From the NCBI GenBank assembly GCA_963761305.1, contig CAVXGK010000002.1, forward strand, positions 1 to 64,000: a DNA stretch of 64,000 nt, read 5' to 3'. The notes under the pieces are model-generated. The model worked only from the letters and a program-made list of their open reading frames with translations, was not told the origin of the DNA and did not search any database. The stretch is from an uncultured Gemmatimonadaceae bacterium (GTDB lineage: Bacteria; Gemmatimonadota; Gemmatimonadetes; Gemmatimonadales; Gemmatimonadaceae). Numbering within the stretch: the first letter of the stretch is position 1; every line of letters starts with the position of its first letter. Positions 11,741-47,788 of the stretch are shown here, piece by piece. The position numbers were made by a program, and so were the translations under genes.

Positions 11741-11865
11741 GAAACGGCGAAAACGGCGAAACGGCGAGGGGATCGCGGCCAGTGACGTTTGGCTTGGCGC
11801 TCTGGCCCCGATCTTGGGCTCGAAATCGGACGTCAGACGTCAGAAAGGGCAGACGTCAGACCAGC
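11741..11865. repeat. Composite intergenic repeat: AACGGCGA x3, GATCGCGGCCA hairpin, GACGTCA heptamers
   Basis: 11741..11771 matches the array tail at 37027..37055; 11771..11781 pairs with 11803..11813; 11818.. GCTCGAAATCGGACGTCAGACGTCAGA matches 13634, 13944 and 51071..51114 (reverse). Confidence 0.75.
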
Positions 11866-25764: not shown

Positions 25765-25780
25765 GCGGGAGCGAATCGAC

Positions 25781-26977: not shown

Positions 26978-28545
26978 TGGCTAGCCTTCGCGATCGCCTG
27001 ATGGGGCGCGGTCAGCCTCCGAAACCGGGCTTGGGTGGCAAGCCAGGCGAGTCGCCGGACGGTACGCCATCCGGCGGCACGCCCGGTACGCCGTCCGGAT
27101 CGCAAAACACGCCGACCGGGCCGATCCGCACGGGCCCGATTACGGCGGCCATCACCGGGGCGCTCACTGGTTCCTCGACGCGGCCCACGTCGCGCACCAC
27201 GCAGCAGACGTCGCGCACCGCGCCGACGACGGGCCGCACTACCGCGGGCCGCACGTTCGGGTCGCGCACCGAATCGCCCGTTCTCAGCCCGGTCGACCAG
27301 CTCAAGGTCGACCTGCACCGCCGGCTGATCGAGCGCCTGGACCTCGAAGCGCTGGAGAAGATCAACGACGAGGGCGTGCTGATCCAGCAGATTCGAAACG
27401 CCGTCGTCGAGTTCCTGCGCAGCGAAAAGGCGCCGCTCAGCCAGACCGAGCGCGAAGAAGTCATCGAGCAGATCGTGTACGAGGTCACCGGACTCGGACC
27501 GATCGAGCCGCTGTTCCGCGATCCGTCGATCACCGACATTCTGGTGAACGGCCCCAAGGACGTGTACGTCGAGCGCAAAGGCAAGCTGGCCCGCGTGCCG
27601 ACGAGCTTCCGCAACAACGCGCACCTGATCGCGATCATCGACCGCATCGTGAGCCGCGTGGGCCGGCGCGTGGACGAGTCGTCGCCGATGGTGGACGCGC
27701 GTTTGCCGGACGGCTCGCGCGTGAACGCGATCATTCCGCCCCTGGCCATCGACGGGCCGGTGCTGTCGATCCGCCGATTCGGCACGCAGATCACGATCGA
27801 CCAGCTACTGGAGCTGGGCGCGCTGACGAGCGAAATGGTGTATCTGCTGGCCGGATGCGTGCAGGCCCGTTTGAACATTCTCATCTCGGGCGGTACCGGC
27901 TCGGGCAAAACGACGTTGCTCAACGCGCTGAGCTCGTTCATTCCGGCGAGCGAGCGTATCGTGACGATCGAGGACGCCGCCGAGCTGCGGCTCCAGCAGG
28001 AGCACGTGGTGCGTCTGGAGACGCGGCCGCCGAACGCCGAGGGGCGCGGCGAGGTGCTGGCGCGCGACCTGGTGAAGAACGCGCTGCGCATGCGTCCCGA
28101 CCGCATCATCGTCGGCGAGGTGCGCGGAACCGAGGCGCTGGACATGCTTCAGGCGATGAACACGGGCCACGAGGGCTCGCTCACGACCATCCACGCCAAC
28201 TCGCCACGCGACGCGATGGCGCGGCTGGAGACGATGATCCAGTTCGTCGGGACGTCGCTGCCGAGCAAGGCGATGCGCGAGCAGATCTCGTCGGCGCTGG
28301 ACCTGATCATCCAGGTGTCGCGTCTCTCGGACGGCACGCGCCGGGTGACGAGCGTGACCGAGGTGACGACGATGGAAGGCGAAGTCATCTCGGCGCAGGA
28401 GATTTTCCGGTTCCGCCGGCAGGGCGTTACGAACGACGGCGGGGTTGTCGGCCGGTTCGAGGCGTCGGGAATTCGGCCGGGCTTCACCGATCGGCTCCGT
28501 GTGGCGGGGGTCGATCTGCCGTCCAACCTGTTTGCTGCCGGGTGA
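26977..28545 (+). CDS. cpaF: CpaF/TadA pilus assembly ATPase with long low-complexity N-terminus
   Basis: '[12 protein letters not shown]', '[10 protein letters not shown]', 'TIEDAAEL', '[15 protein letters not shown]', 'AMNTGHEGS'. Confidence 0.97.
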
Positions 28546-28553
28546 GCTGAGCC

Positions 28554-29507
28554 ATGCAGGGTCTCGTTCTCCTTCTCGTCTTCTTCGGCACGGCGATGCT
28601 CGTGCTGGGGACATACGCGGTCATCAACCGGCGCCGGCTGAACGCCTCCGCGATGCTGCGCGACCGCATGGGCGACGACGCGCCGGTGGGGACGCCGACG
28701 GCGAACATTCTGCGCGACTTGCGCCGGAGCAGCCTGCCGGCGCTGGACCGGCTGCTCGATTCGATGTCGGTGTCGGAAGCGCTGGACTACGAGCTGCGGC
28801 GGGCCGGCGCGAGCTGGTCGGTGGGCGAGTTCGTGCTGGGGAGCGCGATCGCGGCCTCGTTCCTCCTTCTGATCGGGGAGCAATGGGGACTCTTCACGGC
28901 ATGGATCGGCGCATTGGTCGGTGCCGTGGCGCCATTCATCGTCGTGCGCCACATGCAGAAACGCCGGGCCAAGAAATTCGAGGAACAATTGCCCGACGCG
29001 ATCGACATGATCGTGAACGCGATGCGGGCCGGTTTCTCGTTCCAGGCGGCGCTCAAGTTCTGCGGCGATGAGATCGCCGCGCCGCTCGGTGATGAGTTCA
29101 CGCGCATGTACGACGAGCAGCGGCTGGGTTCCGACATGCGTCATGCTCTCCTGGGAATGCAGGAGCGCGTGGGGACGCTCGACGCCAAGATGCTCGTTAC
29201 GTCGCTCCTCATTCAGCGCGAGACGGGCGGCAATCTGAGCGAGGTGCTGGGTGGGCTGGCCACGCTGATTCGCGACCGCGGTTCTCTACGCGGCCAGATC
29301 GACACGCTCACCGCCGAGCCGAAGTTCACGGGACGCGTGCTCGCGCTGCTCCCGGTTGTTGCCTTTTTTGCGTTGTCGTATCTCAATCGCGACATGATGC
29401 TTCCCATGCTGACCACGTCGACCGGCCGATTGCTGCTCTTGTATGCGGCCGCATCGATCGGGTTGGGATACTTCGTGTTGATGAAAATCGCGGACATCGA
29501 CATCTGA
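28554..29507 (+). CDS. tadB: TadB (T2SS F-family) platform protein
   Basis: 'FEEQLPDAID', 'AMRAG', 'IQRETGGNLSEVL', 'TLTAE'. Confidence 0.93.
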   Translation: MQGLVLLLVFFGTAMLVLGTYAVINRRRLNASAMLRDRMGDDAPVGTPTANILRDLRRSSLPALDRLLDSMSVSEALDYELRRAGASWSVGEFVLGSAIAASFLLLIGEQWGLFTAWIGALVGAVAPFIVVRHMQKRRAKKFEEQLPDAIDMIVNAMRAGFSFQAALKFCGDEIAAPLGDEFTRMYDEQRLGSDMRHALLGMQERVGTLDAKMLVTSLLIQRETGGNLSEVLGGLATLIRDRGSLRGQIDTLTAEPKFTGRVLALLPVVAFFALSYLNRDMMLPMLTTSTGRLLLLYAAASIGLGYFVLMKIADIDI

Positions 29508-29517
29508 TGGGTGCCCT

Positions 29518-30450
29518 GTGAACCTTTCGTCGCTGTTTTTGGTGGTTCTGGTGATGCTGTTGGTGACCGCCGTGGTCGTCGCCATCGGCGCGTACCAGGC
29601 GAATGCTCGCCGGGCGATCGCACTCGCGCGCGCGGGTGGCGGCGGCGCCGGCGCGGTCGACGTGGTCCCCCTCATCACGCTTCCGGACGACAGCAGCAGC
29701 ATGGCGATGCGGGTAGGGAAGGTGGCCGAGCGGTGGCTGCCGGAGGGCGCCGTCTCACTCGATGTTTCCAGTCAGCTCATCCAGGCTGGATTCGAGTCAC
29801 CGGCGGCGCCGGTGTTATACACCGTCATCCGTCTGGTCTCAGCGCTCATCATTCCCGGCGCGATGTTCGCGTGGGGTCCGCACGACTCGAGCTTCATGGT
29901 GCTCTTGAGCGGGACGATCGGCATTGCCCTCGGGCTCATCGGCCCGCCGGCGATGCTGGAGAGAATTCGGCGGTTGCGACAGGAGCGGATCATCCACTCG
30001 ATTCCCGACACGCTGGACTTGCTGCTCGTTTGTGTGGAGGCCGGCGTCAGCCTCGACGCGGCTTTGCTCCGTGTCGGTCGCGAGATGGTGCTGCTCCATC
30101 CGGAGCTGGCCAACGAACTGCTGACGATGAATCGGCGGATGAATGCCGGCATGCGGCGTGAAGAGGCGCTCCATGGTCTCTACGAGCGCACCGGCGTCGA
30201 GGAGCTTCGCGCGCTCGGGACGAACATGATTCAGAGCGAACGGTGGGGCACGTCGATCGCCAAGGTACTACGCGTCTACTCGGAGTCGATGCGGAGGAAA
30301 CGTCGTCAGGCGGCCGAGAAGAAGGCGGCCGTCGCGGCGACGAAGATGGTCTTTCCGTTGGCCTTGTTCATTCTTCCCGCGTTGTTCGCGGTCATCGGCG
30401 GCCCGGCGATTCTCTCCATCGGGCCGGTCTTCCAGGCGTTGGGCCAGTAA
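29518..30450 (+). CDS. tadC: TadC platform protein
   Basis: 'IPDTLDLLLVCVEAGVSLDAAL', 'IQSERWGTSIA', 'AEKKAA...KMVFPL'. Confidence 0.93.
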   Translation: MNLSSLFLVVLVMLLVTAVVVAIGAYQANARRAIALARAGGGGAGAVDVVPLITLPDDSSSMAMRVGKVAERWLPEGAVSLDVSSQLIQAGFESPAAPVLYTVIRLVSALIIPGAMFAWGPHDSSFMVLLSGTIGIALGLIGPPAMLERIRRLRQERIIHSIPDTLDLLLVCVEAGVSLDAALLRVGREMVLLHPELANELLTMNRRMNAGMRREEALHGLYERTGVEELRALGTNMIQSERWGTSIAKVLRVYSESMRRKRRQAAEKKAAVAATKMVFPLALFILPALFAVIGGPAILSIGPVFQALGQ

Positions 30451-30465
30451 GGATCGGGGGCGATC

Positions 30466-31590
30466 ATGCAAAGGCTCGAAATCGAGTTATCAAATCGAAG
30501 GGGATTCACGCTCATTCTGGGGGTCTTGTTGATCACGGTGATCCTCGGCACGGCGGCGTTCGCCGTCGACGCGGGTCATGAGAACTTGAACCGGGCGCAG
30601 GTACACGCCGCCGCGGACGCCGCGGCATTGGCGGGGATGGAGAAGTACGCCGCTACGGTTGACGCGTCGAGTGCGCTCGCGGAGGCACAGCTCTACGCGT
30701 CGAAGTTCAAGGCGGACAACGCGGCGCTCAGCTTGCAGTCCGCGGACTTTGCGCTTGGCCACTGCTCGGCGCCGTGCTCGCCATCGACGTTCGTTGCCGG
30801 CGCGCCTGACTCGGTGGCGAAGGCGACGATCCGCGACACCACGCACTATGCGTTCGCACCGGTGTTCAGAGTCTTCGGGCTCGACATCCAGAGCCACCTC
30901 ACGTCCGCGACGTCGATCGCGGTCGGTCAGTCGAGGAAGGAGGTCACCAAGTCGACCTGCGTAGCCCCGATCGTGATGCCTGTGTCGGCGCTTTTCCACG
31001 AGATCGGAGACGACACAAACGGGAATACCGATACCCTTACCGCCTCAGACATCGCGAAGCTCTCGGGGACCTCCTCCAATCCGATTACTCTGCCGGTGCA
31101 AAACGGGACCAAGGTCAACACGTTGGACAGCGTGTTCTATCAAGCTCAATTCCCTCCCACGATGACGGCGGACAGCATCCAGCACGGAGGACAGTCGAAC
31201 AGCGCATCGTTCTATCGCAACGCGATTACGTGCACCGGTGGGGTGGCTCCGGTTGGCGTCGGGGACTGGCTCGGTGCCGTTAACGGTGTCAAAGCGAACG
31301 CCACACAGTCGGGTCTCGACAACGCGGACGGCGGGACGCTTCCGGTGACAGTCGAAGTAGTGCTCGCGGATTTTATCGGATCACCGAAGGACAAGTTCGG
31401 GGCGACGGTCGCGGGCTGCCCGTGTTTGCATGTCGGATACGTCGGCGCGTTCACGTTCACCGCGACCGGCAACAAGTCCGTGACCGGGTACTTCACCACG
31501 CTTAGTCCGCTAGCCGGTGGCGTCGTGCAGTCTGACACGTCGCATTCGGCTCCGCTGGGGCAGATTTCCAAGATTCGGCTGATTTATTGA
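30466..31590 (+). CDS. tadG: TadG-like pilus-associated protein/adhesin
   Basis: 'NRRG|FTLIL...AFAVDAG...QVHAAADAAALAG' N-terminus; Cys pairs; ends 'IRLIY'. Confidence 0.8.
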   Translation: MQRLEIELSNRRGFTLILGVLLITVILGTAAFAVDAGHENLNRAQVHAAADAAALAGMEKYAATVDASSALAEAQLYASKFKADNAALSLQSADFALGHCSAPCSPSTFVAGAPDSVAKATIRDTTHYAFAPVFRVFGLDIQSHLTSATSIAVGQSRKEVTKSTCVAPIVMPVSALFHEIGDDTNGNTDTLTASDIAKLSGTSSNPITLPVQNGTKVNTLDSVFYQAQFPPTMTADSIQHGGQSNSASFYRNAITCTGGVAPVGVGDWLGAVNGVKANATQSGLDNADGGTLPVTVEVVLADFIGSPKDKFGATVAGCPCLHVGYVGAFTFTATGNKSVTGYFTTLSPLAGGVVQSDTSHSAPLGQISKIRLIY

Positions 31591-31633: not shown

Positions 31634-33409
31634 TTGGCCTCGCTCGTGACCCAACCCTCGGAAGAATCGCAGGACCTAATCGCTTGCCCGTCGTGTGACA
31701 GCCCCGCCGACCCGCGCGCCGTGGTGTGCGCGGTCTGCGGCGCCGTGCTCGCGAGCGGCATCGAGAGCGATCAGGCCGCGGACCTGCTCAAGCGGCTCCG
31801 CGACGCCCTGCAGGGTCGTTACGTGCTCGGCACCGCCATCGGTCTCGGCCGCGGCGGCATCACCATTCGCGCACGCCGTCAAGCGGGGGCAAACCGTGAC
31901 GTCGCGATCAAGATCGCCTGGGACGATCCGGTCGCGCGCCGAGACCTGGTGCGCGAAACGGACCTCGCGTCGCAGGTCGTTCATCCCAACGTCCTGCCGA
32001 TGGCGCGGCTCGACGTCGCGCCACCGCTCGTCGCCGTCGAGATGCCCCTCGTGGAGGGTGGAACACTCGGCGATCTGATCGACAGCGGCAAACCCGTGCC
32101 ATACCAGCGCGTGATCGAGATCGTGCGCGGCATCGGCGCCGCGCTCGACGAGGCCCACGACCACGGCGTCGTGCACGGCGCGCTGCGCCCGGAAAACGTC
32201 CACCTCGACCGGGACGGCAACGCGCTCATCTCCGGGTTCATGCTCGGGCAGTTCCCGAGTGGAGACCGCGACGCGCCGCTTCCCAACTCGATCGGCTCGC
32301 CGGCGTACACCGCGTTCGAGCAGCGGCACAACCTTCACACGATCGACGGGCGCGCCGACCAGTTCTCGCTTGCGGTGATCGCGTACGAGCTGCTCTGCGG
32401 CCGTCGCACGTGGCGCATTCCCGCCGACGGCGTGCTCGAGATCGACGCCATCGAGATCATGCCGCACCGCGCCATTGCGCCGGCCGTTCCGCTCAGCGCA
32501 GGCGCGGCGATCAAGCGCGCGACCTGGAAGGATCCGGACTACCGGTACGACAGCATCAACGACTTCATCGCCGGGCTCACCGGAACCGTGCTTCAAGGGA
32601 CCCCCGCCGAGCAACTCGCGAAGGTGGACCACGGCGGCGACATCAAGCGTCGCTCGCCGGTATGGATCCTCGCGCCCCTTGGCATTTTGGTGTTCCTCGC
32701 CGGTGGGTTTCGGCCCGACATTCGAAAGACGGCGACGCGCTGGTGGCATCTTGCATTCACCGACAACACCATGTTCGTGCCGGGCGGCAACTACTCCGAC
32801 GGGCCGGCGATCGATCCGAGCTCGCCGCCGACCATGCCCAGTCCGGCGACCACAAGGCGCCCTGACACGACGCAGTCGTCGCGGGGGAACACGCGGATCG
32901 GCGTCGAGACGCCGCTTGGGCCAGCCGCGCCGCTGGGCCCCGATCGCCAGTTCAACCCTTATCCCAACAGCCCGAACTCCGGGGGCGGAAACGAGGCTCC
33001 CTCGAATACGCGCCGAGTGGACGACGGGTCAAAAGATGCGGGCACGCGCACGCCCGATTCCAAGACGTCCAAACCCGGAGCGGAGCACGTCTCGCTCGAG
33101 GCGGGCGCGATCGGATCGGCCCCAGGTGCCAGTTCGGGGCGCGGCGGCGCGGCGCTGGCCGGCGACACGGTATCGCCCAACGTCGCCGGCTTCGTCGCCG
33201 TGTCGGTCGAGAGTGGGCTCGCGACCGTTTTCGTCGACGGCCTGTTGCGCGGGAGAGCGCCGCTTGTCCTGAAGGCGGCGGCCGGGAAGCACGTGGTGAC
33301 CGTGAAAGGCACCGGCAAGTACGCGCCTTCGTCTATCTCGGTCACGGTCACGCCGCACGACACGATTCGCGCTGTGTTTGCAACGAGCGCCGGTCCGCCG
33401 AAAGAGTGA
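31634..33409 (+). CDS. Zinc-ribbon + Hanks-type Ser/Thr kinase-like domain (probable pseudokinase) + TM + PEGA domain
   Basis: 'CPSC...CAVC', 'DVAIK', 'HPNVL', 'HGALRPENV', 'GSPAYTAFEQ', 'ADQFSLAVIAYELLCG'; TM; 'ATVFVDG...GRAPL...GKHVVTV'. Confidence 0.85.
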   Translation: MASLVTQPSEESQDLIACPSCDSPADPRAVVCAVCGAVLASGIESDQAADLLKRLRDALQGRYVLGTAIGLGRGGITIRARRQAGANRDVAIKIAWDDPVARRDLVRETDLASQVVHPNVLPMARLDVAPPLVAVEMPLVEGGTLGDLIDSGKPVPYQRVIEIVRGIGAALDEAHDHGVVHGALRPENVHLDRDGNALISGFMLGQFPSGDRDAPLPNSIGSPAYTAFEQRHNLHTIDGRADQFSLAVIAYELLCGRRTWRIPADGVLEIDAIEIMPHRAIAPAVPLSAGAAIKRATWKDPDYRYDSINDFIAGLTGTVLQGTPAEQLAKVDHGGDIKRRSPVWILAPLGILVFLAGGFRPDIRKTATRWWHLAFTDNTMFVPGGNYSDGPAIDPSSPPTMPSPATTRRPDTTQSSRGNTRIGVETPLGPAAPLGPDRQFNPYPNSPNSGGGNEAPSNTRRVDDGSKDAGTRTPDSKTSKPGAEHVSLEAGAIGSAPGASSGRGGAALAGDTVSPNVAGFVAVSVESGLATVFVDGLLRGRAPLVLKAAAGKHVVTVKGTGKYAPSSISVTVTPHDTIRAVFATSAGPPKE

Positions 33410-34926
33410 TGCGCACCCGAGCGCCGCTTCTCGCGGCTCTCGCCATCGCGGCGGGCCTTCCGTTCGCCGCAGTGGCCCAGCGGATCTCTCCGCTGCCCAA
33501 GCCCTGCCGTGTGCCGGGCGCCGAGGCCGCGAACGTCCTTCCGCAGCGGATCCGCTCATCGCTGGCCGTGTCGGTTTTCTCATCTGACTCCACCGACCCG
33601 GCGGGGGAGCTGGCGGGCGGAATCGCCGACGCCATCGCCAATCGGCTCGGCACGTCGGTCCCCCGAATCCTCGTGATAGGTCGCCGCGCCCAGCACCGGC
33701 TCGTCGTTACCGACTCGATTTCCGCGCGCGCGATGGCCGAAAGCCTCGGCACGACGTACGTGCTCGCGGGCCGCGTGACCGAGGGACTTCGCGGGCGCAC
33801 CGTGGCGTTCACCTTGTACAACGGCGCGACGGGGCGCGCGCTGATGTATCGCACGCTGCCGCACGATTCCGCCCACGTGATGCTCGTGGAGCAGAACGTC
33901 TCGCGGCAGGTGGCGACGCAGATTCTGGGGAAACTCAACCCGGGCGAACAACGAGCCCTCGACCGGGTGCCACGGGTCAACGGGAACGCTTACGACGCGT
34001 ACGTGCGTGGACAGGGCGCGCGCGACGTGTGGGCGTTTGGCCGGGCGGCTGGATACTTCCGCGACGCGGCGCGGCTCGACAGGTCATTCAGCGCCGCCTT
34101 CGCCGATCTGGCGCTCGCCGACGTCGAGATACTGCTGCGCGGACTCAGCTCGACCGCGGCGACGGACGTCGCTCTCGAGGCGCGCAACGCGGCGAGCCAC
34201 GCCGTCGCGCTCGACTCGATGTCGAGCCTGTCGTGGCGCGCCGAAGGGGCGGCGCGCCTGGTCGACGGGAAATCCAGCGCGCTGTGGCGGCGGGCCTACG
34301 AGCGCGCGATCGTGCTCGACCCTCGCGACCCGGCGGTACTCGAGGAGTACGGACTCGCCCTCGTCCGCACGGGTGATCGCGAAGCCGGCCGCCCGCTGCT
34401 GGAGCGCGCGCTCGTTTACGAACCGGGGCGAGCGCAGCCGATGGCGGCGCTTGCCAGCCTCGCGATCTCCGATCACCGTGATGGCAGCGCGTGCACCCTG
34501 CTCAACCAGGCAATCGTGGGCGACGTGCTCTTCGCGCCCGCGTGGGCGCAACGGGCGGTGGTTCGCGCGCAGCATGGGGATCTGCGCTTCGCGTGGGCCG
34601 ACGCCGAGACCGCGACGCAGCTCGGAGAAAGCCACCTCGGCGAGAGCGCTGGCGCGATGGTCGATTTACTGGCGCGCGATACGTCGCGTGCTCGCGACCG
34701 ACTTTATATCGAGTGGAGCCAGGTGAAGGCCGCCGGCGCGGTGGGAGTGACCGATGGCACGGCAATCGCGCGTGCGATGATCGCCGCGGGGCAATCTACC
34801 CGCGCGCTTGACGTTCTCGAGCTGGCGAGGCCGCGGGGACTGTGGTTCGTTACCGCGTTGCGCGATCCAGCCTTCGACACCCTTCGCGGCGATAAGCGTT
34901 TTCTCGCTCTGACGACGAAGCAATGA
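33406..34926 (+). CDS. Secreted TolB_N-like + TPR repeat protein
   Basis: Signal peptide; 'LAGGIADAIANRL', 'LGTTYVLAGRV', 'AYDAYVRG', 'AARLDRSFSAAFADLA', 'DPAFDTLRGDKRF'. Confidence 0.75.
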   Translation: MMRTRAPLLAALAIAAGLPFAAVAQRISPLPKPCRVPGAEAANVLPQRIRSSLAVSVFSSDSTDPAGELAGGIADAIANRLGTSVPRILVIGRRAQHRLVVTDSISARAMAESLGTTYVLAGRVTEGLRGRTVAFTLYNGATGRALMYRTLPHDSAHVMLVEQNVSRQVATQILGKLNPGEQRALDRVPRVNGNAYDAYVRGQGARDVWAFGRAAGYFRDAARLDRSFSAAFADLALADVEILLRGLSSTAATDVALEARNAASHAVALDSMSSLSWRAEGAARLVDGKSSALWRRAYERAIVLDPRDPAVLEEYGLALVRTGDREAGRPLLERALVYEPGRAQPMAALASLAISDHRDGSACTLLNQAIVGDVLFAPAWAQRAVVRAQHGDLRFAWADAETATQLGESHLGESAGAMVDLLARDTSRARDRLYIEWSQVKAAGAVGVTDGTAIARAMIAAGQSTRALDVLELARPRGLWFVTALRDPAFDTLRGDKRFLALTTKQ

Positions 34927-36056
34927 CCGGTCTGCGGATCGATCGGGAGAGGGTTCGGCTCTACGGAATCGGACTCGCCCTGATCGGTCTCACGCAGATG
35001 CGGTTCGTGGCGAGCGTCGGGCACTACTGGGATTGGGTCGACTTCTACATCGCCGGCGCGATGGCCGGGACGCGCGCGCTGCTCGACCCCGCGGCTCATG
35101 CCGCCTGGGGAGCGGCCCATGGCCTCCCCGTGACATCGTTCGCGTACATGCCGGGCTTTGCCTGGCTCCTCGTGCCGACGTCTCACCTGACGATCGCGTT
35201 GGGTTTTGCGGTCAATGCCGTACTGATGTCGCTCTGCGCGCTTGTCGCGTCGAGGCTTGCGTCGCGCGTCTACGGTCTCGACGCCGGAGACGCGCTCTAC
35301 ATGACCATCGGTTGGGCCCCGGTGACGGCAGCAATCGTGACCGGACAAAACAGCCCTCTTGGTCTACTCCTTTCGCTCGTGGCGATCGACGGCCTGCAGC
35401 GGGGCAGCGCTCTCCGAACGGGCCTGGGTGTTGGGGCGCTGTGCTACAAACCAACATACGCGCTGCCGTTCGCCATTCTGCTTCTCATATATCGAAAGTG
35501 GAAGGCGATCGGGGTCGTGGCGGCGTGCGGCGTGGTATGGTACGTACTCAGCGCGAGCGCGGCAGGCGGGGACTGGCTGTGGCCAAGGCCGTATCTCCAG
35601 TCGCTGGCCGGCTACGTCGGGCCGGATTTCGCCTACAACCGCTTCAAGTCGGTGAGCGTTCCGGGGCTGCTGATGCTGGCCGGCGTCTCAGCCAGCGTGG
35701 CCTTTGGGATCGGGATGGTTGGTCTCGTCTCGGCGCTGGGGTGGCTCAGGGCGCGGAAGGTCGAGCTGCTTTCGGCCGCAAGTCTTGCGGGAGTCATTGG
35801 CGTGGCGACGAGCGGGCACGCGTGGCCGTACGATGCGGCGCTCGCGTTGCCGGCGCTGTGGTGGGTCGCGGCGAAGGTCGACGAGCCGGCGAGGACTCGG
35901 GCGATCGTGGTTGCGTACGTGGTTGCGCCGTTGTGGATGGCGGCGCATACACTCCGATTCGACCCGCTGGCGATTGTCGTTGTTGGAGGGGCGGGGGCGC
36001 TTGTGGTGCGAACGGCGAAACTAACAAAGAGCGAAACAAACAAAGGGCGAAGCTAA
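34923..36056 (+). CDS. Glycosyltransferase family 87 (DUF2029)-like membrane protein
   Basis: 'DWVDFYIAG', 'FAYMPGFAWL', 'TGQNSPL', 'YKPTYA', 'HAWPYD'; last ~15 codons derive from the repeat array. Confidence 0.82.
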   Translation: MTGLRIDRERVRLYGIGLALIGLTQMRFVASVGHYWDWVDFYIAGAMAGTRALLDPAAHAAWGAAHGLPVTSFAYMPGFAWLLVPTSHLTIALGFAVNAVLMSLCALVASRLASRVYGLDAGDALYMTIGWAPVTAAIVTGQNSPLGLLLSLVAIDGLQRGSALRTGLGVGALCYKPTYALPFAILLLIYRKWKAIGVVAACGVVWYVLSASAAGGDWLWPRPYLQSLAGYVGPDFAYNRFKSVSVPGLLMLAGVSASVAFGIGMVGLVSALGWLRARKVELLSAASLAGVIGVATSGHAWPYDAALALPALWWVAAKVDEPARTRAIVVAYVVAPLWMAAHTLRFDPLAIVVVGGAGALVVRTAKLTKSETNKGRS

Positions 36057-36172
36057 CAAAGAGCGAAGCTAACAAAGGGCGAAGCTAACAAAGGGCGAAG
36101 CTAACAAAGGGCGAAGCTAACAAAGGGCGAAGGTGACGAACGGCGAAGGTGACGAACGGCGAAAAAGGCGAG
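36009..36172 (+). repeat. 16-bp tandem array A
   Basis: 7 units of CTAACAAAG(G/A)GCGAA(G/A) type (36021..36132) then 2 GTGACGAACGGCGAA(G/A) (36133..36164). Confidence 0.95.
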
Positions 36173-36297
36173 ATGACGTGGCCCCCAAGACTGGCCCGGA
36201 AATGATGTCAGTCCAGTGATTGACGCTCGCGCGTTGGCGCAGCGGAAGCTGTCCGATCTCGAGGGGCAGCGGGAGGTGGTGCGACACATCTGTGTCC

Positions 36298-36720
36298 CTA
36301 GGCTGGCACCGGAGTGCCCTTGGCCCACGCCCACGCGGCTATGCGCCAACTGTCTTCATGCTTCCGAAGTGCAAGCGTAAAGGTCGCGTCCGACTGAGTA
36401 ATCTGCTTGCCCAATAGCTTGAACGTCATGCTCGCGGGAACCACCACATACGCACTGTCGCCGGTAACGTTGGCATGCAACGGGGTGCCGATCGTGACCA
36501 AGTAGTCGGTCGCGCCTTCGTGTTCGGCTGCCGCCAATACGTCCCTGTACCAATCCTCACACGCCGTGGGACCGTGCCACACATGTGGCGCCAGACCATC
36601 GAGGATAGATGCGGGAACAGCGAAACACGCCGCCATTGCCCGAGCGTCACCTTTGTTGAACGCGTCGATGTACTGGCGCACTACAGTTACGGGATCGCTT
36701 GTTGGTGCAGCCCGTGCCAT
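36298..36720 (-). CDS. NTF2/SnoaL-like domain protein
   Basis: 'VVRQYIDAFNKGDARAMAACF', 'VTGDSAYVVVP', 'FTLALRK...SWRIAAWAW'; RBS GGAGA. Confidence 0.85.
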   Translation of the reverse strand: MARAAPTSDPVTVVRQYIDAFNKGDARAMAACFAVPASILDGLAPHVWHGPTACEDWYRDVLAAAEHEGATDYLVTIGTPLHANVTGDSAYVVVPASMTFKLLGKQITQSDATFTLALRKHEDSWRIAAWAWAKGTPVPA

Positions 36721-36924
36721 GTGAGTTTCTCCCAAGGCTTCGCCAAAGCTCGGTCCATCTCAGGACGCGCATTCAAGTTGTGCGCGTCGCGCGCGCAGAC
36801 ACCGAGACACGGTACGAAGACGACAGTCAGTCGGTGATTAGCGTCGTGAAGGTGCAACGTTGAGGAGTTCTTTGACAAACTCGTCCGGGGTCCGATCGCC
36901 GAGGCCGCTGTTAGCGCGCGACGA

Positions 36925-37055
36925 CTAACAAAGGGCGAAACTAACAAAGGGCGAAACTAACAAAGGGCGAAGCTAACAAAGGGCGAAGCTAACAAAGGGC
37001 GAAGCTAACAAAGGGCGAAGGTGACGAACGGCGAAACGGCGAAAACGGCGAGGGG
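36925..37055 (+). repeat. 16-bp tandem array B, abutting the 3' end of the four-helix-bundle gene
   Basis: 6 x CTAACAAAGGGCGAA(A/G) (36925..37020), GTGACGAACGGCGAAA, then CGGCGAAAACGGCGAGGGG. Confidence 0.95.
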
Positions 37056-37060
37056 TTCGA

Positions 37061-37396
37061 CTAGTACTTCAAGCCGTTGATCATCCGAACGATCGTGATG
37101 CCGCGGTTTGAGAGGCGGTGGTAGTCGGCACGGGTAAGTTCGCCCAGACGATACGACTTCCGAATCCATCCGATTGTCTCCTCGCACTCACAGCGGGCGA
37201 TTCGGTAGACGCGCATCCGATCGGCGCCCGGGCCACGGCCGTAGCCCTCGATCAGGTTTGAACTGATCGATCCGGCGGAGCGAATAACTTGCCCTGAATA
37301 CGTCTTTCGGCCGGCGCGCCGACCGAAGCGGCGATTTACGTCCACGGCGTAATCCTCGGCTGCATCGATCACGCGCAGCGTCCGTTTCGGTGGCAT
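37061..37396 (-). CDS. Four-helix-bundle protein (23S rRNA intervening-sequence protein/IVP-like family)
   Basis: 111 aa; 'LRVIDAA', 'GQVIRSAGSISSNLIEGYGR', 'YRIARCECEET', 'IVRMINGL' fit the family pattern Q..R.A.SI..NI.EG..R...IA.GS..E. Confidence 0.85.
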   Translation of the reverse strand: MPPKRTLRVIDAAEDYAVDVNRRFGRRAGRKTYSGQVIRSAGSISSNLIEGYGRGPGADRMRVYRIARCECEETIGWIRKSYRLGELTRADYHRLSNRGITIVRMINGLKY

Positions 37397-37539
37397 GGGC
37401 GACACCGTAACGCCGCTCTCGGGGCCAACCACCATCCCGCCGTTGCCGCCGGAACCAATCCGTTGCCGAATTCCTTCTGCCGAAGGAGAGGTCACGGCCG
37501 GGCTGAGAAAGGTCTGAATCGCCCCTCTGGCCGTTCTCG

Positions 37540-37685
37540 CCCCTCTCGAAGTTCGTTACCTTCGCTCTTCGTTAGCCTCGCCGTTTGGCGTCTTCGCCGT
37601 TCGTTCGTTTCGCTCTTCGTTAGCTTCGCCGTTTGGCATCCTCGCCGTTTGGCATCTTCGCCCTTCGTTCCCTTCGCCGTTCGCC
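37540..37685 (-). repeat. 16-bp tandem array C, inverted relative to A/B, more degenerate
   Basis: Reverse complement gives ~8 units, e.g. CTAACGAAGAGCGAAG, ATGCCAAACGGCGAAG, ending ...CGAGAGGGG towards the four-helix gene. Confidence 0.9.
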
Positions 37686-37688
37686 TAC

Positions 37689-39344
37689 ATGGTCAAGCCG
37701 ATCATTCTCGCCGTCGACGATGATCCCGAAGTGCTGAACGCGGTCGATCGCGATCTTCGCGCGCACTTTCGCGCGGACTATCGGGTCATCAAGGTCGCGT
37801 CCGGCCGCCTGGCGATGGAGACGACGACGCAGCTCAAGCAGCGGGGGTCGCCGATCGCGCTCTTTCTCGTCGACGAGCGCATGCCCGAGATGAGCGGGAC
37901 GCAGTTTCTGGCCGAGGCGATCAAGCTGTATCCGGACGCGCGCAAGGTGTTGCTGACGGCGTACGCCGATACCGAGACGGCGATCCTCGCAATTAATAAG
38001 ATTGGGCTTGATCATTATTTACTGAAACCGTGGGAACCGCCGGCCGAGCGGTTGTATCCGATCCTCGACGACTTGTTGACGGACTGGAAGGCGAGGACGC
38101 GGCCGCTGTTCGACGGGTTGCGCGTCGCCGGCACGGGGCTCTCGCCGTCGAGCTATGCACTCAAGGATTTTCTCGCCGGCAACCAGGTGCCGTACCAGTG
38201 GGTCGACCTCGATGCGGATCCCGCGGCGCGCGCGCTGGTCGAGGCGATGCCGGGCGGATTGAAGCGGCTTCCGGTCGTCTTCTTTCCCGACGGAGCGTCG
38301 ATGGTCCAGCCGACGACGCTCCAGCTGGCCGAGAAGCTCGGCATGCAGACGCACGCGAAGTCGAAGCAGTACGACCTCGTCGTCGTCGGCGGCGGGCCGG
38401 CGGGATTGGCCGCGGCCGTGTACGGCGCGTCGGAGGGGCTGCGCACGATTCTGGTCGAGCGCTATGCGACCGGCGGACAGGCGGGCACCAGCTCGCAGAT
38501 CGAGAACTACCTCGGGTTCCCGAGCGGCGTGAGCGGCGCGGATCTCGCGCGCCGAGCCACGACACAGGCGAAGCGATTCGGGGCCGAGGTGCTCACGGCG
38601 CAGGACGTCGGGTCGATCGAGCGGAACGATCCGTATCGCGTGGTGAAGCTGTCCGACGGTTCTGTGTTGCAGAGCAAGACGGTTGTCATCGCGTCGGGGA
38701 TGGAAGTGCGGCGGCTCGACGTGCCGGGGATCGAGGCGCTCGTCGGCTGCGGCGTTTTCTACGGCGCCGCGCTCACCGAAGCGGCGACGTACCGCGACCG
38801 CGACGTGTTCGTCATCGGCGGCGCGAACTCGGCGGGGCAGGGCGCGATGTTTTTCTCGCGCTACGCGCGGCGCGTGACGATGCTCGTGCGCGGCGAATCG
38901 CTGACCGCCAGCATGTCGCAGTATCTCATCGACCGCATCGCGGACACCAAGAACGTCGAAGTGCTAACGCGAGCAGCGGTGTGCGGGGTGCGGGGAACTG
39001 AGAGGCTCGAGGCGATCACGATCTCCGATCTCAAGACCGGTGCGACGCGCGAGATGCCGGCCGACGCGCTGTTCATCTTCATCGGCACGTCGCCGCGCAC
39101 CGAGGTGGTCGCGGGACTGGTGCAGCGCGACGCGCAGGGATTCATCCTCACGGGACGCGACCTGATGGTCGACGGCCAGCGTCCGCCGGGGTGGACGCGC
39201 GACCCGTATCTCTTCGAGACGAGCGTGCCGGGCATCTTCGCCGCCGGCGACGCGCGGCGCGGCTCGGGAAAACGCGTCGCCGCGGCCGTGGGCGAGGGAT
39301 CGGCGACGGTGAGCATGGTCCACGAATACCTGGAGACTGTGTGA
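37689..39344 (+). CDS. Response-regulator receiver fused to thioredoxin-reductase-like FAD oxidoreductase
   Basis: 'ILAVDDD', 'DERMPEMSG', 'LLTAYAD', 'KPW'; 'GGGPAGLAAA', 'GGQAGTSSQIENYLGFP', 'IGGANSAGQ', 'FAAGD...KRVAAAVGEG'. Confidence 0.93.
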   Translation: MVKPIILAVDDDPEVLNAVDRDLRAHFRADYRVIKVASGRLAMETTTQLKQRGSPIALFLVDERMPEMSGTQFLAEAIKLYPDARKVLLTAYADTETAILAINKIGLDHYLLKPWEPPAERLYPILDDLLTDWKARTRPLFDGLRVAGTGLSPSSYALKDFLAGNQVPYQWVDLDADPAARALVEAMPGGLKRLPVVFFPDGASMVQPTTLQLAEKLGMQTHAKSKQYDLVVVGGGPAGLAAAVYGASEGLRTILVERYATGGQAGTSSQIENYLGFPSGVSGADLARRATTQAKRFGAEVLTAQDVGSIERNDPYRVVKLSDGSVLQSKTVVIASGMEVRRLDVPGIEALVGCGVFYGAALTEAATYRDRDVFVIGGANSAGQGAMFFSRYARRVTMLVRGESLTASMSQYLIDRIADTKNVEVLTRAAVCGVRGTERLEAITISDLKTGATREMPADALFIFIGTSPRTEVVAGLVQRDAQGFILTGRDLMVDGQRPPGWTRDPYLFETSVPGIFAAGDARRGSGKRVAAAVGEGSATVSMVHEYLETV

Positions 39345-40774
39345 TGGGCGACACGCCTGCGGAAATCGTCGAGCGGCTCGTCGCGCACCGCACACTGGGG
39401 GGCGCGCCGCGCGCGGAGCTCGAGTGGCTGGCCACGCACGGCACCATGCGGCGCTACGGAACGGGGGACATCCTCGTCCCGCCCGGTGCGACGTCCACCG
39501 AGATGGTGATCATCTTCGTGGGCGACGGGTCGATCAGCGTCGAACGAGCGGGGGAAAAAAAGAAGTTCCTCGAGTGGCACGCCGGCGACGTCACCGGCCT
39601 GCTTCCATATTCTCGAATGAAGCGGCCGCCGGGGCTGACGACGACGGAGTCGTCAATCGAGGGGCTCGTCATTCACCGGGATCTGTTCCCCGAGCTGACG
39701 CGCGAATGTCCGTGGGTCACGGAGACGCTCGTGCACATCATGCTCGATCGCGCGCGGCAGTTTTCGGCCAACGACTGGCAGATCGACAAGCTCGCGTCGC
39801 TGGGACGCCTCTCGGCGGGACTGGCGCACGAGCTCAACAACCCGGCGTCGGCGATCGCGCGCAGCGCGCGAACGCTGGTCGAGAACCTGGCGCAGTCGCA
39901 AGCGGCGGCGCGAGAACTGGGGGCGGCCAACCTCCGCGATCGCGACATCGCGCTGATCGACGCCATGCGCGACGGCCAGGCGTTTCCGCGAGCGACCGGC
40001 ATCTTCTCGGCGATCGAGCGCGCCGATCACGAAGAGGAAGTGGTCGAATGGCTCGAAGCCAAGGGCGCCGATCCGGCGACGGCGCAGAGCCTGAGCGAGA
40101 ATGGCGTTCCCGTGGCGGCGCTCGACGATCTGGCGAGCGCGATCCCGGAAGAGTCGCTGGATGCCGCGCTCCGGTCGGTGGCGTCGGGCATCACGACGCG
40201 CTTGCTCGCCGAGGACATCGAGCGCGCCGCGACGCGGATTCACGAGCTGGTCGGCGCGATCAAGCGCTTCACCTACATGGATCGCGCGACGGTGCGAGAA
40301 CCGGCCAACATCGCGCAGGGGATCTCGGACACGATCGCCGTGCTGGCGTCGAAGGCGAAGTCAAAATCGGCCTCGATCAAGCTCGACATCCCCGCCGATC
40401 TGCCGAAGGTCGGCGCGTACGGAGGCGAGTTGAATCAGGTATGGTCGAACCTGATCGAGAACGCGCTCGATGCGCTGGGGCAGGGCGGCGAGGTGTCGGT
40501 CACGGCGCGGGCGGAGGGGGACACGGTCATGGTGCGGATCGTCGACAATGGGTCGGGGATTCCGGCGGATGTCCTGCCTAGCATCTTCGATCCGTTCTTT
40601 ACTACGAAGCCGATGGGGCAGGGGACGGGGCTGGGGCTGGACATCAGTCGGCGGATCGTGTTATCGCATGAAGGGACGATTGAGGTCGAGTCTAAGGCGG
40701 GGAGGACGGAGTTTAGGATTTCATTACCAACGGCGAAGATAACAAAGGGCGAAGATGACAAAGGGCGAGGATAA
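39344..40774 (+). CDS. Cyclic-nucleotide-binding-domain histidine kinase
   Basis: N-terminal cNMP-like fold; 'AGLAHELNNP', 'LNQVWSNLIENALDA', 'DNGSGI', 'FDPFFTTK', 'GTGLGL'; C-terminus derives from array D. Confidence 0.93.
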   Translation: MGDTPAEIVERLVAHRTLGGAPRAELEWLATHGTMRRYGTGDILVPPGATSTEMVIIFVGDGSISVERAGEKKKFLEWHAGDVTGLLPYSRMKRPPGLTTTESSIEGLVIHRDLFPELTRECPWVTETLVHIMLDRARQFSANDWQIDKLASLGRLSAGLAHELNNPASAIARSARTLVENLAQSQAAARELGAANLRDRDIALIDAMRDGQAFPRATGIFSAIERADHEEEVVEWLEAKGADPATAQSLSENGVPVAALDDLASAIPEESLDAALRSVASGITTRLLAEDIERAATRIHELVGAIKRFTYMDRATVREPANIAQGISDTIAVLASKAKSKSASIKLDIPADLPKVGAYGGELNQVWSNLIENALDALGQGGEVSVTARAEGDTVMVRIVDNGSGIPADVLPSIFDPFFTTKPMGQGTGLGLDISRRIVLSHEGTIEVESKAGRTEFRISLPTAKITKGEDDKGRG

Positions 40775-40937
40775 CAAAGGGCGAAGATAACAAAGGGCGA
40801 AGATAACAAAGAGCGAGGATAACAAAGGGCGAAGATAACAAAGGGCGAGGATAACAAAGAGCGAGGATAACAGAGGGCGAAACTGCCAAAGGGCGAAGCT
40901 AACAAAGAGCGAAGGTGACGAACGGCGAGAACGGCGT
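40727..40937 (+). repeat. 16-bp tandem array D
   Basis: 12 units 40739..40930, mostly ATAACAAAG(G/A)GCGA(A/G)G, ending CTAACAAAGAGCGAAG-GTGACGAACGGCGAGA-ACGGCG. Confidence 0.95.
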
Positions 40938-40960
40938 AAGGCGCCCCGTCGCCTCTGGAT

Positions 40961-40996
40961 TCGCAGTCCTCGCAGTCCTCGCAGTCCTCGCAGTCT
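40961..40996. repeat. (TCGCAGTCC)x4 nonamer between arrays D and E
   Basis: Three exact copies plus TCGCAGTCT. Confidence 0.9.
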
Positions 40997-40997
40997 T

Positions 40998-41075
40998 GGC
41001 TGTTCTCGGAGTTTGTCACCTTCGCTGTTCGTTAGTTTCGGAGTTTGTCACTTTCGGGGTTTGTTACCTTCGCTT
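40998..41075 (-). repeat. 16-bp tandem array E, inverted partner of D
   Basis: Reverse complement: GTAACAAACCCCGAAA GTGACAAACTCCGAAA CTAACGAACAGCGAAG GTGACAAACTCCGAGA ACAGCC. Confidence 0.85.
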
Positions 41076-41087
41076 TTAGTCAGGGCT

Positions 41088-42617
41088 ATGTCGACAATGT
41101 CTCGTCAGTCCCCCGCAGACCTGTCTCCCGATGAGTTCCGGGCCGCCGGCAAGGCGTTGGTCGACCGGCTCGCCGATTTTCTGGCCACGATTCGAGATCA
41201 GCCCGTCGCGCCGAATACGACTCCTGCGTCGGTGCGCGATCGAATCGCCGGGCTCGATCCGGTTCCGCTGAAGGGCTCCCCCGCTGGCGAGGTTCTCGCG
41301 CATGCGTCGGACGTGATGCTGTCCGGGTCGACGCTGAACGGGCATCCGCGGTTCTTTGGGTACATCACGTCTTCGGCGTCGCCGATCGGGGCGCTGGCCG
41401 ATCTGCTGGCGGCGGCCGTGAATCCGAATTGTGGCGCGTGGGCGCTGTCTCCGATCGCCACCGAGATCGAGAAGCAAACGATTCGCTGGGTCGCGGAGCT
41501 GATCGGTTATCCGACGGACTGCGGTGGCATTCTGGTGAGCGGCGGCAACGTGGCGAATCTCGCGTGCTTCGTGGCCGCCACGCGTGCGCAGTCGTCGTCC
41601 GATCTGCGCGCGCACGGCGTGTCGGGCTCGGAACGGCTGCTCGTGTACGCGTCGGCCGAGGTGCACACGTGGCTGGAGAAGGCCCTCGACATCTGCGGGC
41701 TGGGTCTCGACTCGCTGCGCTCGATTCCGGTCGACCACACGCGCGCGATGAACACCGAGGCGTTGCGCGAGCAGATCGAGCGCGATCGTCGCGACGGGCT
41801 GCGGCCGGCGATCGTCGTCGGCACGGCGGGGTCGGTAAGCACGGGCGCGATCGATCCGCTGCGCGAGATCGCCGCGATCGCCAAAGAGAACGATCTATGG
41901 TTCCACGTCGACGGCGCGTACGGCGCGCCGGCGGCGATTCTTCGCGATGCGCCGATCGAGTTGCGCGCCATGGCGCTGGCCGATTCGCTGGCCGTGGATC
42001 CGCACAAATGGCTGTACGCTCCGCTCGAGGCGGGGTGTGCGCTCGTGAGACGCCCCGCGGCGCTGCACGACGCGTTCGCTTTCCATCCCCCGTACTACAC
42101 GTTCGAGGGCGACGTCCAGGATCCTCCGACCAACTTCCATGAGTGGGGACCGCAGAACTCGCGCGGGTTCCGGGCGCTCAAGGTCTGGACGACCATCCAG
42201 CAGGTGGGGCGGGAAGGGTATGAGCGGATGATCGGCGACGACATCACGCTGTCGATGCTCATGCACCGGCTGGCCGACGAGCACGAGGAGCTCGAGCCGC
42301 TCACGCAATCGCTCAGTATCAGCACGTTTCGTTACGTCCCGGCGGATCTGGCCGGCCGGTCCGACGCCGCCGAGTACCTCAATGAACTGAACAGCACGCT
42401 GCTGGCGCGGATTCAGGCGGATGGGACGGCCTATCTGTCCAACGCGGTCATCGAGGGGGTCTTTGCGTTGCGTGCGTGCATCGTGAACTTTCGGACGACA
42501 GAAGAGGACGTGCGGCGGACGCTCGCGACGGTGGTGACACTCGGCCGCGCGGCGGACGACGCGTTGCGTCCGGCTGGCCTGCGGGCTCCCATCCGCTCGG
42601 CCGGCGTCGCCCGATAG
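41088..42617 (+). CDS. Group II PLP-dependent (aromatic L-amino-acid-type) decarboxylase
   Basis: 'HPRFFGYI', 'SGGNVAN', 'TAGSVSTGAIDPL', 'FHVDGAYG', 'DPHKWLY' (PLP lysine), 'SRGFRALKVW'. Confidence 0.93.
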   Translation: MSTMSRQSPADLSPDEFRAAGKALVDRLADFLATIRDQPVAPNTTPASVRDRIAGLDPVPLKGSPAGEVLAHASDVMLSGSTLNGHPRFFGYITSSASPIGALADLLAAAVNPNCGAWALSPIATEIEKQTIRWVAELIGYPTDCGGILVSGGNVANLACFVAATRAQSSSDLRAHGVSGSERLLVYASAEVHTWLEKALDICGLGLDSLRSIPVDHTRAMNTEALREQIERDRRDGLRPAIVVGTAGSVSTGAIDPLREIAAIAKENDLWFHVDGAYGAPAAILRDAPIELRAMALADSLAVDPHKWLYAPLEAGCALVRRPAALHDAFAFHPPYYTFEGDVQDPPTNFHEWGPQNSRGFRALKVWTTIQQVGREGYERMIGDDITLSMLMHRLADEHEELEPLTQSLSISTFRYVPADLAGRSDAAEYLNELNSTLLARIQADGTAYLSNAVIEGVFALRACIVNFRTTEEDVRRTLATVVTLGRAADDALRPAGLRAPIRSAGVAR

Positions 42618-42622
42618 CGGGC

Positions 42623-42650
42623 GCGCTCCAATCCGAACACATTGGAGCGC
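42623..42650 (+). terminator. Perfect 10-bp inverted repeat just after the decarboxylase stop (terminator-like or operator)
   Basis: GCGCTCCAAT-N8-ATTGGAGCGC, followed by TT only. Confidence 0.45.
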
Positions 42651-42792
42651 TTGCACGTAATACATTCGTGAGTCGGCAGTAAGGCGCTTCGCGGCTTCGC
42701 TGTCGACCACCACGAATATCACGAATCGCAGGCTCGAGCGGCCCCCACCCGCCGGCTCGGCATAACCGTTTGTTTTGCCTCTAAACGCTCTA

Positions 42793-44386
42793 ATGATCGG
42801 ACCGCGCCCATTCGGCCGCCGCGCACCGTCGTGGTACATCATCCTCGCGCTCGCCGGGATTTCGGCGACCGCTTGTAGCAAGAAGCAGGGACCGCAGCAG
42901 CGACCAGTCGCCATGGTCGGCGTGATTCCAGCGCGCCGCGCGACTGTTCCATACATCATCGAATCGAACGGCATCGTCACGCCGCTCCAGACGGTGACGG
43001 TGCTGACTCAGGTCGACGGCATCATCCAGTCGGTGGACTTCCGGGAAGGCCAGGAAGTTCGCGTCGGACAGCCGCTCTTCCATATCGATCCGCGGCAATA
43101 CCAGAACGCATACGACCAGGCGCTCGCCATGCTCGCGCGCGACAGCGCGACGTGGGAGAACGCCAAGGCCAACTCGGATCGCTACAAGCAACTGCTCGAC
43201 GCGCGCGTCATCACGTTCCTCGAGACCGAGGCGCAGGTGACCGGCGAAGCGAGCGCGCGCGCCACGTTGCAGGGCGACCACGCGAACATCGCGCAGGCGA
43301 AGCTCAATCTCGACAACACGATCATTCGCGCGCCGATCGCCGGCCGAACGGGCAACCTGCTGGTGAAGCTGGGGAACCTTGTGCGATCGGGCGGCACGAC
43401 GCCGCTCGTGGTGATCAACCAGGTGCGGCCGATCCTCGTGCGATTCGCGATTCCGTCGGCGCAGCTGCCGCTGGTCGTGCAGTACGGCGCGAACGGTGGT
43501 CTGCCCGTCGAGGCGCTGCCGGGCGGTGTGGCACCGCCGACACCTTCGATCGACTCGCTCGCTGCCGCCTCCATGAACCCGGTGGGCGATCCGCCAGGCC
43601 AAGACGGGGGGGGCGGCTCAGCCAGCGCGGGCGGCAGCGGCGGCAGCGGCGGGGGACGCCATAGAGGTGGCGGCGCGGGCGGGGGTGCCTCGGGCGGCCC
43701 GCCGGGTAGCGCGGGCGGTCCTCCGAGCGCGGGAACGGATGGAGCGGGTCCCGGCGCAGTGCCGCAGGGGCATGGGTCCGGGTCGCCGATGCAAGGCGGA
43801 GCCGGAGCCGGGGGCGGGGGCGGGGCCTACTCCGGATCGCAGGGCGTTGGTGCGCTCTCGGCGGCCGGACCAACCACGCCCGTTGGCGAGCGCATGACCG
43901 GCAAACTCTCGTTCATCGACAACGCGATCGATACGTCGACGCAGACCGTGCAGCTCAAGGCGACGTTCGACAACGCAAACGGGCATCTCTGGGCGGGACA
44001 GTTCACGGCGACGTCGCTGCATCTGTTCGACGAAGACAACGCGCTCGTCGTGCCGTCGCAAGCGGTGGTGAGCGGCCAGCGCGGCATGTACGTCTACGTC
44101 GTCGATCAGAGCGACACGGCGCGCCAGCGCGGCGGTGATCGTCGAGCGCACCCAGGACGGCCTCTCGATCATCTCGAATGGAATTCACGAAGGCGATCGC
44201 GTGGTGACCGACGGCCAAATGCGACTCACGCCGGACGCGCCGGTTCGCGTACGCGGACCGAACGACGTTGCCGGCGGCGCGACTGGCAGCCGTCGCGGGC
44301 GTGGCGGCAGAGGTGGTGGTCGCCGCGGCGGTGGCGGCGCATCCGGCGGAGCCGCCGACAGCACGGCAGCGAAACGCGGCGGGTGA
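42793..44386 (+). CDS. RND efflux periplasmic adaptor (MdtA-like) lipoprotein with Gly-rich insertion; frameshift near 44128
   Basis: 'ISATAC' lipobox; 'QVDGIIQSVDFREGQEV..GQPLFHIDPR', 'IRAPIAGRTG', 'GKLSFIDNAID..TQTVQLKATFDN', 'GDRVVTDGQ' in 44135..44386. Confidence 0.9.
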
Positions 44387-47507: not shown

Positions 47508-47760
47508 CAACGGAACGGTTTTTTTGGGACAGCCGCTCGGGAAGCTTCCGGGTTGAGGGGTGAATCGTTTCGACCGGTGGCATCCCGAGCGTCAGTTCCA
47601 AAAAGCATTCCTCCCGGCTCGTTGCGAACGGAGCGAACCCGATCGAGGGACCATCCGCGTCATCTGCGTCAATCTGCGTTCATCCGCGTTGAGTAGTTGC
47701 AGTTGGCAGTTGCAGTTGCAATTGGCCGTTGGCAGTTGCAGTTGGCAATTGGAGTTGTAG
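47508..47760. repeat. Structured intergenic insert: long hairpin, ATCYGCGTY nonamers, CAGTTG(G) repeats
   Basis: TTTTTGGGAC..CGCTCGGGA pairs with TCCCGAGCG..GTTCCAAAAA (47521..47604); ATCCGCGTC ATCTGCGTCA ATCTGCGTTC ATCCGCGTT (47653..47690); AGTTGC/AGTTGGC run 47695..47757. Confidence 0.8.
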
Positions 47761-47788
47761 TGAATGACTTACCCTATCGAGTAGTTCG

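Follow-up and report, generated by a model that had tools for sequence, protein, structure and literature searches.

MITEs are short, non-autonomous elements with inverted repeats, and the STRR sequences of cyanobacteria form short tandem arrays in intergenic DNA. In RAYT/REPIN systems, each class of repeats is accompanied by a mostly vertically inherited gene, and the repeats are found as inverted doublets in extragenic space (cited passages of PMC3337134 and PMC3686654). The abundance of these repeats is tied to the cognate gene (same passages; RAREFAN). The rRNA intervening sequence (IVS) of Coxiella harbors an ORF of the S23p family in a 28-bp stem that is cut by RNase III, and tandem heptamers are located upstream of this ORF (cited passages of PMC4990558). 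Avd, a protein of the DGR systems, is grouped with PF05635 in CDD cd16375 (cited passages of PMC10053308).

The window, i.e., the whole analyzed stretch of 64,000 nucleotides from an uncultured Gemmatimonadaceae bacterium, contains a cassette that was compared with these systems. As in RAYT/REPIN systems, its four-helix gene lies between copies of a cognate repeat, which also occurs scattered through the genome as inverted doublets. Unlike the HUH/Y1 tyrosine transposase of a RAYT, the encoded protein is a 111-aa helical bundle in which no HUH motif was found. Unlike the REPIN palindromes, the units are non-palindromic, purine-rich tandem 16-mers with the purine-rich arm first. RAYT/REPIN systems differ, furthermore, in that the old sites of the four-helix repeat appear to be rewritten in place, and whole cassettes can be duplicated. 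With the rRNA IVSs of Coxiella and Leptospira, the cassette shares the protein family and the position within stem-forming terminal inverted repeats, but it lies between protein genes, usually antisense to the host gene, its arms are arrays of 130-165 bp and it has gene-less relatives genome-wide. Its ORF is under purifying selection, whereas that of Coxiella is described as decaying (cited passages of PMC4990558). Compared with MITEs, neither a transposase partner nor, by eye at four paired ends, a target-site duplication was seen for the four-helix elements. No paper linking STRRs to the four-helix family was found, and the literature covered, outside which most subscription journals lay, contained no description of a four-helix gene that is enclosed by inverted tandem arrays and located elsewhere than in rRNA. 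This gene-plus-repeat organization is probably undescribed in print.

Layout of the cassette and its protein

The first-pass annotation had described a lone 111-aa four-helix-bundle gene inside inward-facing 16-bp arrays, and this layout was borne out (Table 1). The gene extends from an ATG at 37396 to a TAG at 37061-37063. Array B (7.1 copies, 92% matches) ends ...ACGGCGAGGGG, exactly 5 bp from this stop codon, and array C is, as had been read, the repeat family of B reversed, with its GAGGGG end also facing inward. Array C is looser than B (69% matches); its inner end lies 122 bp from the four-helix ATG, and the REC-TrxB start codon (ATG) follows 5 bp beyond its outer end. Alignment of B with the reverse complement of C gave a score of 102, compared to 37 at most for 600 random sites of the same geometry. 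The B-C span was predicted to fold with -364 kcal/mol (z of -6.4; 20 shuffles), and arm B by itself folds weakly (-16.8 kcal/mol over 133 nt). With scores of 164-210, arm B was more similar to dispersed copies than to its partner C (102), a pattern that plain gene conversion could also produce.

Table 1. Features of the cassette and related elements in the window.
Feature	Position	Strand	Description
Host flank, GT87 glycosyltransferase gene	34923..36056	+	head-on to four-helix gene
Arm A	36009..36164	+	second complete left arm, polarity as B
SnoaL-like segment between arms A and B	36165..36923	-	gene 36298-36720
Arm B	36924..37055	+	purine-rich 16-bp tandem array, unit GGCGAARCTAACAAAG, inner motif ..GGCGAGGGG
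Four-helix-bundle gene, PF05635 23S_rRNA_IVP / TIGR02436	37061..37396	-	111 aa, pI 10.5
Leader, arm C to ATG	37397..37518	-	-10-like hexamer 37404-37409, 7 nt before ATG
Arm C	37519..37683	-	inverted, more degenerate array, 16-bp family of B
Host flank, receiver domain-thioredoxin reductase (REC-TrxB) gene	37689..39344	+	
Gene-less element of the cassette's 16-mer family	40732..41072	.	arms D, E
Solo fragment, inner-end motif of 16-mer family	11741..11771	+	

The hexamer in the leader, read by eye, may represent the four-helix gene's own leaderless promoter. TAnnnT hexamers are placed similarly ahead of several orthologues and paralogues. On the left side, the last codons and the stop codon of the GT87 gene fall inside arm A. 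The SnoaL segment between arms A and B is absent from six syntenic relatives and shares 92% nt identity with a non-syntenic locus of relative G002. For the host genes on either side, no relative comes nearly as close, which suggests a recent transfer of the segment into the left arm. The gene-less element downstream sits between a histidine kinase gene and a decarboxylase gene; its arm D extends over about 40732-40935 (+) and its arm E over about 41006-41072 (-).

In agreement with the first-pass annotation, 39 + 5 window proteins yielded no match to families of transposases, integrases or RTs, in a scan that omitted five called genes and six gaps of more than 500 bp. No Rfam match was obtained within 33000-43000. 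The cassette was also considered as a DGR and this was rejected, since a linked reverse transcriptase was not found: unlike in a DGR, the scanned window proteins include no RT family, and the single RT of the genome (C1:821 kb) is encoded on another contig than the cassette. A search of genome contigs for related loci yielded one weak match, and no contig of four DNA runs spanned the stretch. A joint of 36173 to 37571 in contigs of these runs, which seemingly skips the cassette, was rejected as an excision because it carries the spacer of another gene-less element (C2:2977 kb).

The protein was confirmed as a PF05635 member by profile search, with 58.1 bits against a cut-off of 33.8, and it matched TIGR02436 with 60.2 bits against a cut-off of 24. 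The predicted model comprises four helices (pLDDT of 93.6), and its nearest fold was 2RLD (Z of 18.5, rmsd of 1.5, 108 aligned), while Xcc0516 (2GSC) matched with a Z of 16.7. The Avd structure 8UB8 shares the four-helix fold (Z of 13.8, rmsd of 2.0, 104 aligned, 9% identity), at the same level as unrelated bundles, with a pectin methylesterase inhibitor reaching a Z of 13.4. Avd was absent among the sequence matches of the protein. By likeness to the five-chain entries 2RLD and 2GSC and to the protein described in the cited passages of PMC4990558, the four-helix protein probably forms a homopentamer. It is basic (23 K+R, 11 D+E) and contains the motif RxxxSxxxNxxEG. The dN/dS values of 0.08-0.47 for 21 orthologue pairs point to purifying selection on the gene; the six pairs that involve the genome of the window were near synonymous saturation. 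The ESM Atlas clusters closest to the protein are mostly from Gemmatimonadota.

Repeat units and protein clades

Below, the genome holding the window is denoted G000 (contigs C1 and C2), its relatives are numbered from G001 onward and loci are numbered with the prefix L. PF05635 matches were present in 39 of 41 genomes, with up to 13 per genome. The best listed matches and the nine own loci of G000 were combined to a set of 125 loci, which are thus selected and not randomly drawn; eight of them were left out due to short flanks or a frameshift, and 117 were scored. Inverted arms, called at an inverted-repeat score of at least 40, were found at 102 of the 117 loci (87%), compared to 10 of 117 in the direct-repeat control and none of 600 random sites. 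The score was below 40 at 15 loci, one of them a G000 paralogue.

The first-pass annotation had raised the pairing of paralogue clades with particular repeat units, and such pairing was observed. Where proteins from different genomes shared 70% identity or more (74 pairs), the arm 7-mer overlap was 0.36, but it was 0.025 for distant paralogues within one genome (158 pairs). Arm similarity and protein identity were correlated with a Mantel r of 0.51, which was reached by 0 of 999 permutations. Arm sequence thus tracks the protein clade rather than the genome, although co-inheritance by itself can yield a pairing of this kind. In a quick tree of the four-helix proteins, the 26-row clade that includes the cassette protein (SH-aLRT of 100) had mostly 16-, 17- or 25-nt periods with a common core, and the remaining clades had mostly periods of 7 or 8 nt.

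As in RAYT/REPIN systems, the abundance of the repeat was tied to the gene. A clade-wide three-unit pattern was matched by 17 of the 19 genomes that have the clade gene, as compared to 4 of 12 without it (Fisher p of 0.002, with kin genomes not independent), and the other eight of these 12 had zero matches. The four genomes with the pattern in which no clade gene was found comprise two with single matches and two, G003 and G042, with clear but orphan arrays, for which the clade gene was not found in fragmented assemblies (93% and 84% complete). Conversely, G012 and G023 possess the clade gene and the pattern was unmatched.

Within G000, ten PF05635 matches corresponded to nine loci. Inverted arms of seven repeat families were found at eight of these loci, with units of 7 (two loci), 8, 13, 16, 16 and 32 nt and one longer compound unit, and one locus was armless. 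The cassette's 16-mer family formed 32 array clusters, of which only those of the window adjoin a four-helix gene, and its arrays gave seven inward pairs and no outward pair. Eight repeat-family scans, two of which overlap, yielded 28 inward pairs and again none outward, and in a de novo scan 50 tandem inverted pairs were detected, the purine-rich arm being first in 45. The spacers of gene-less pairs were short and mostly unrelated, except that two pairs of the second 16-mer family have a common spacer. Two cassettes of the 7-mer family share 96% identity over 659 nt, with an outer inverted motif at their ends, and their flanks are unrelated; this sister cassette was duplicated whole. Inspection by eye of the ends of four paired 7-mer elements revealed no target-site duplication.

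Y1_Tnp (PF01797), and hence RAYT, had no match in G000 (93% complete). RT-templated synthesis of the repeat was considered and given low weight, as RT was matched in no more than 9 of the 41 genomes, with G005, G015, G017 and G019 not among them.

Other elements of this kind were recorded in the window. At 50915-51170, a gene-less element belonging to the 7-mer (GTCAGAC-type) family has outer terminal inverted repeats of ~20 bp, and its cognate four-helix cassettes are located at C2:78.3 kb and C1:30.9 kb. Solo 7-mer arms occur at 11814-11861, 13631-13673 and 13944-13983, the latter two as direct repeats ~310 bp apart, and a solo arm of the 8-mer family at 15678-15711. Two 86-bp units at 8895-9085 are similar to the arms that flank the C1:1106.7 kb paralogue, while the arrays that follow an RND gene (47652-47761), with CATCTGCGT-like and AGTTGC units, were matched to no four-helix paralogue. 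The complete Tad/Flp pilus cluster at 22303-31590, followed by a Ser/Thr kinase gene, is ordinary. Elsewhere, an armless pair of long-branch four-helix genes (G000 C2:2381411 and L133 of G020) possibly represents a domesticated form. Four of the six GxxExxY genes L207-L212, whose product is a predicted nuclease, lie in short inverted repeats of their own and thus parallel the pairing of gene and repeat in the cassettes. Small HTH_37 genes (L215:248-481 and L219:1212-1634) are bracketed by a palindromic repeat that was seen at some four loci of G000, one of which encloses a cupin gene instead.

Age of the locus and apparent rewriting of old sites

An orthologue (56-67% aa identity) was found at the GT87-TrxB junction in six of six close relatives. 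In G001, the junction is occupied by an unrelated paralogue (30%) in opposite orientation. An empty site, sought as proposed by the first-pass annotation, was not found in any of the six syntenic relatives. Thus, the cassette is an old, vertically inherited master copy and not a fresh insertion. The interpretation of the first-pass annotation held in part: clade-unit pairing, dispersed gene-less copies and co-occurrence support the RAYT/REPIN-like organization, while the fixation of the cassette in six of six relatives, a finding of the kind it had listed as refuting, speaks against a freely hopping element. Among 96 locus pairs that were at least 70% identical, 64 had both flanks in common and 27 had no common flank.

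The unit variant, found in both arms, was particular to each genome or to a few genomes together. The variant of the G000 cassette was matched 61 times within G000 and not once in the 40 relatives, and the cassette variants of the relatives were dispersed mainly within their own genomes. The variant of G005, G017 and G022 was present in those three and in G024, an exception in that G024 has dispersed copies of a variant that is missing from its cassette. A third variant peaked in G015 (75 matches), G019 (26) and G024 (10), and four further genomes had 3-6 matches.

Five gene-less sites of G000 were compared with up to five relatives, which at ~80% nt identity are too distant for element ends at 16-mer sites to be resolved. 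Arrays were also present in the alignable relatives at sites S1, S2 and S7, site S3 was empty or nearly so in four of four relatives (20-62 bp vs. 387 bp), and site S6 was mixed across relatives. At six of six tested sites, the D/E element included, the G000 arrays matched their own cassette best. They shared 0.18-0.36 of their 10-mers with it, but at most 0.08 with the orthologous site of relatives (5 sites). The own cassette was the best match in 11 of 16 scorable site-by-genome cases, and the misses were mostly to closely related variants. At S7, in a single example read by eye, the host gene ends in codons for W-A-K-L in G000, in repeat register, and for W-E-L-L in four relatives. In a single example read by eye, at S6, a -10-like box is kept inside the arm. 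It looks as if old sites were overwritten in place, besides the seeding of new ones.

The seemingly empty kinase-decarboxylase junctions of G017, G022 and G024 may be collapsed remnants instead of sites that predate an insertion, and were therefore not counted as proof of insertion. One and the same junction can carry unrelated four-helix cassettes depending on the genome, and repeat families of different kinds were seen nested or paired with one another (L086 vs. L096, L111 and L116; L058; L057), which points to insertion hot spots.

Possible explanations and significance

The best reading is a RAYT/REPIN-like gene-plus-cognate-repeat system that would be built on a non-HUH protein. Its master cassette would be the four-helix gene amid mirror-image arrays, with gene-less hairpins dispersed genome-wide. 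The four-helix protein likely recognizes its own repeat in the form of a single-stranded hairpin; once bound, it would recruit host recombination or repair enzymes. These enzymes would then copy and rewrite the arms, probably as DNA and not as RNA. The gene itself would be inherited mostly vertically, like that of a RAYT, with the arm family refreshed and seeded at gene ends. Cognate-hairpin binding by the protein, with copying and rewriting of the arms as DNA by host enzymes, is given a probability of about 0.5.

After merging loci with common flanks, placement was assessed for 51 cassette sites with a strand caller that was correct in 296 of 300 tests and undecided in four. A host gene was head-on to the 3' end of the four-helix gene at 42 of 51 sites (expected 42%, p of 6e-9). 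Divergent-gene settings were rare, with 3 of 51 cassettes and 1 of 18 gene-less pairs compared to 28% of spacers. This orientation bias fits either selection against promoter disturbance or a role of read-through RNA. The latter is part of an explanation in which the cassettes are the mRNA counterpart of rRNA intervening sequences: RNase III would remove a read-through hairpin, the protein would bind RNA, and slippage and RecA conversion would passively homogenize the arrays. The Coxiella IVS, with the same ORF family, an RNase III-cut stem and tandem heptamers (cited passages of PMC4990558), agrees with it, as do the strong RNA fold of the B-C span, the rarity of divergent settings and the head-on host genes, which also fit an RNA-level role. 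Such an explanation is nevertheless unlikely. The four-helix gene was antisense to the host gene in 20 of 26 co-directional sites, so that the host transcript mostly would not encode it, and 22 of 51 sites were convergent, with no operon to rejoin. Alone, it would also leave the seeding of new sites, the whole-cassette copies and the co-occurrence of repeat and gene unexplained.

The protein could also act more directly. That its oligomer is an unrecognized strand-transfer or nicking enzyme for its own repeat would be compatible with its gene being the sole one inside the cassette, with the absence of RAYT from G000 and the sporadic RT, and with the conservation of Q36, R39, S43, N47, E50, G51 and E73 in 79-98% of 117 aligned family proteins. 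These residues may be packing contacts, however, and an enzymatic role is improbable given that no HUH motif was found in the 111-aa protein, no Tyr is conserved across the 117 proteins and the closest folds include no enzyme. It is more doubtful still that the protein serves as specificity adaptor for a nuclease encoded elsewhere, e.g., by GxxExxY PD-(D/E)XK genes. G000 has six PF13366 matches (L207-L212), four of them with inverted-repeat scores of 30-55, and the fold relative Avd is an accessory protein (cited passages of PMC10053308), but the GxxExxY repeats and the four-helix arms are different families and no linkage of the two kinds of genes was seen. At the far end, a functional link might be absent altogether, the cassettes hitch-hiking and their arrays evolving by slippage and conversion whatever the protein. 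The mostly vertical inheritance, the orphan arrays of G003 and G042 and the persistence of the armless paralogue type in G000 and G020 would be in line with this, but it is very improbable in view of arms at 87% of loci across many clades and with unrelated units (0 of 600 controls), purifying selection on the gene and the complete lack of matches in 8 of the 12 genomes that have no clade gene.

The RAYT/REPIN-like reading on a non-HUH protein may be extended, tentatively and with somewhat less than even odds, to an undescribed class of selfish elements. PF05635 oligomers would read their own repeat, seed hairpins and overwrite old ones, even into neighboring codons and promoters, without an HUH transposase or RT, and those of them that inserted into rRNA genes would be what is known as rRNA intervening sequences. 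PF05635 is a widespread family with solved structures and no known function, for which a cognate-repeat role represents a testable job, and the seven protein-repeat pairs in G000 open specificity to a simple cross-binding matrix. If true, this reading would account for a large class of intergenic tandem arrays, rRNA intervening sequences would join a wider family of elements, and repeats would spread without a recognized transposase or RT.
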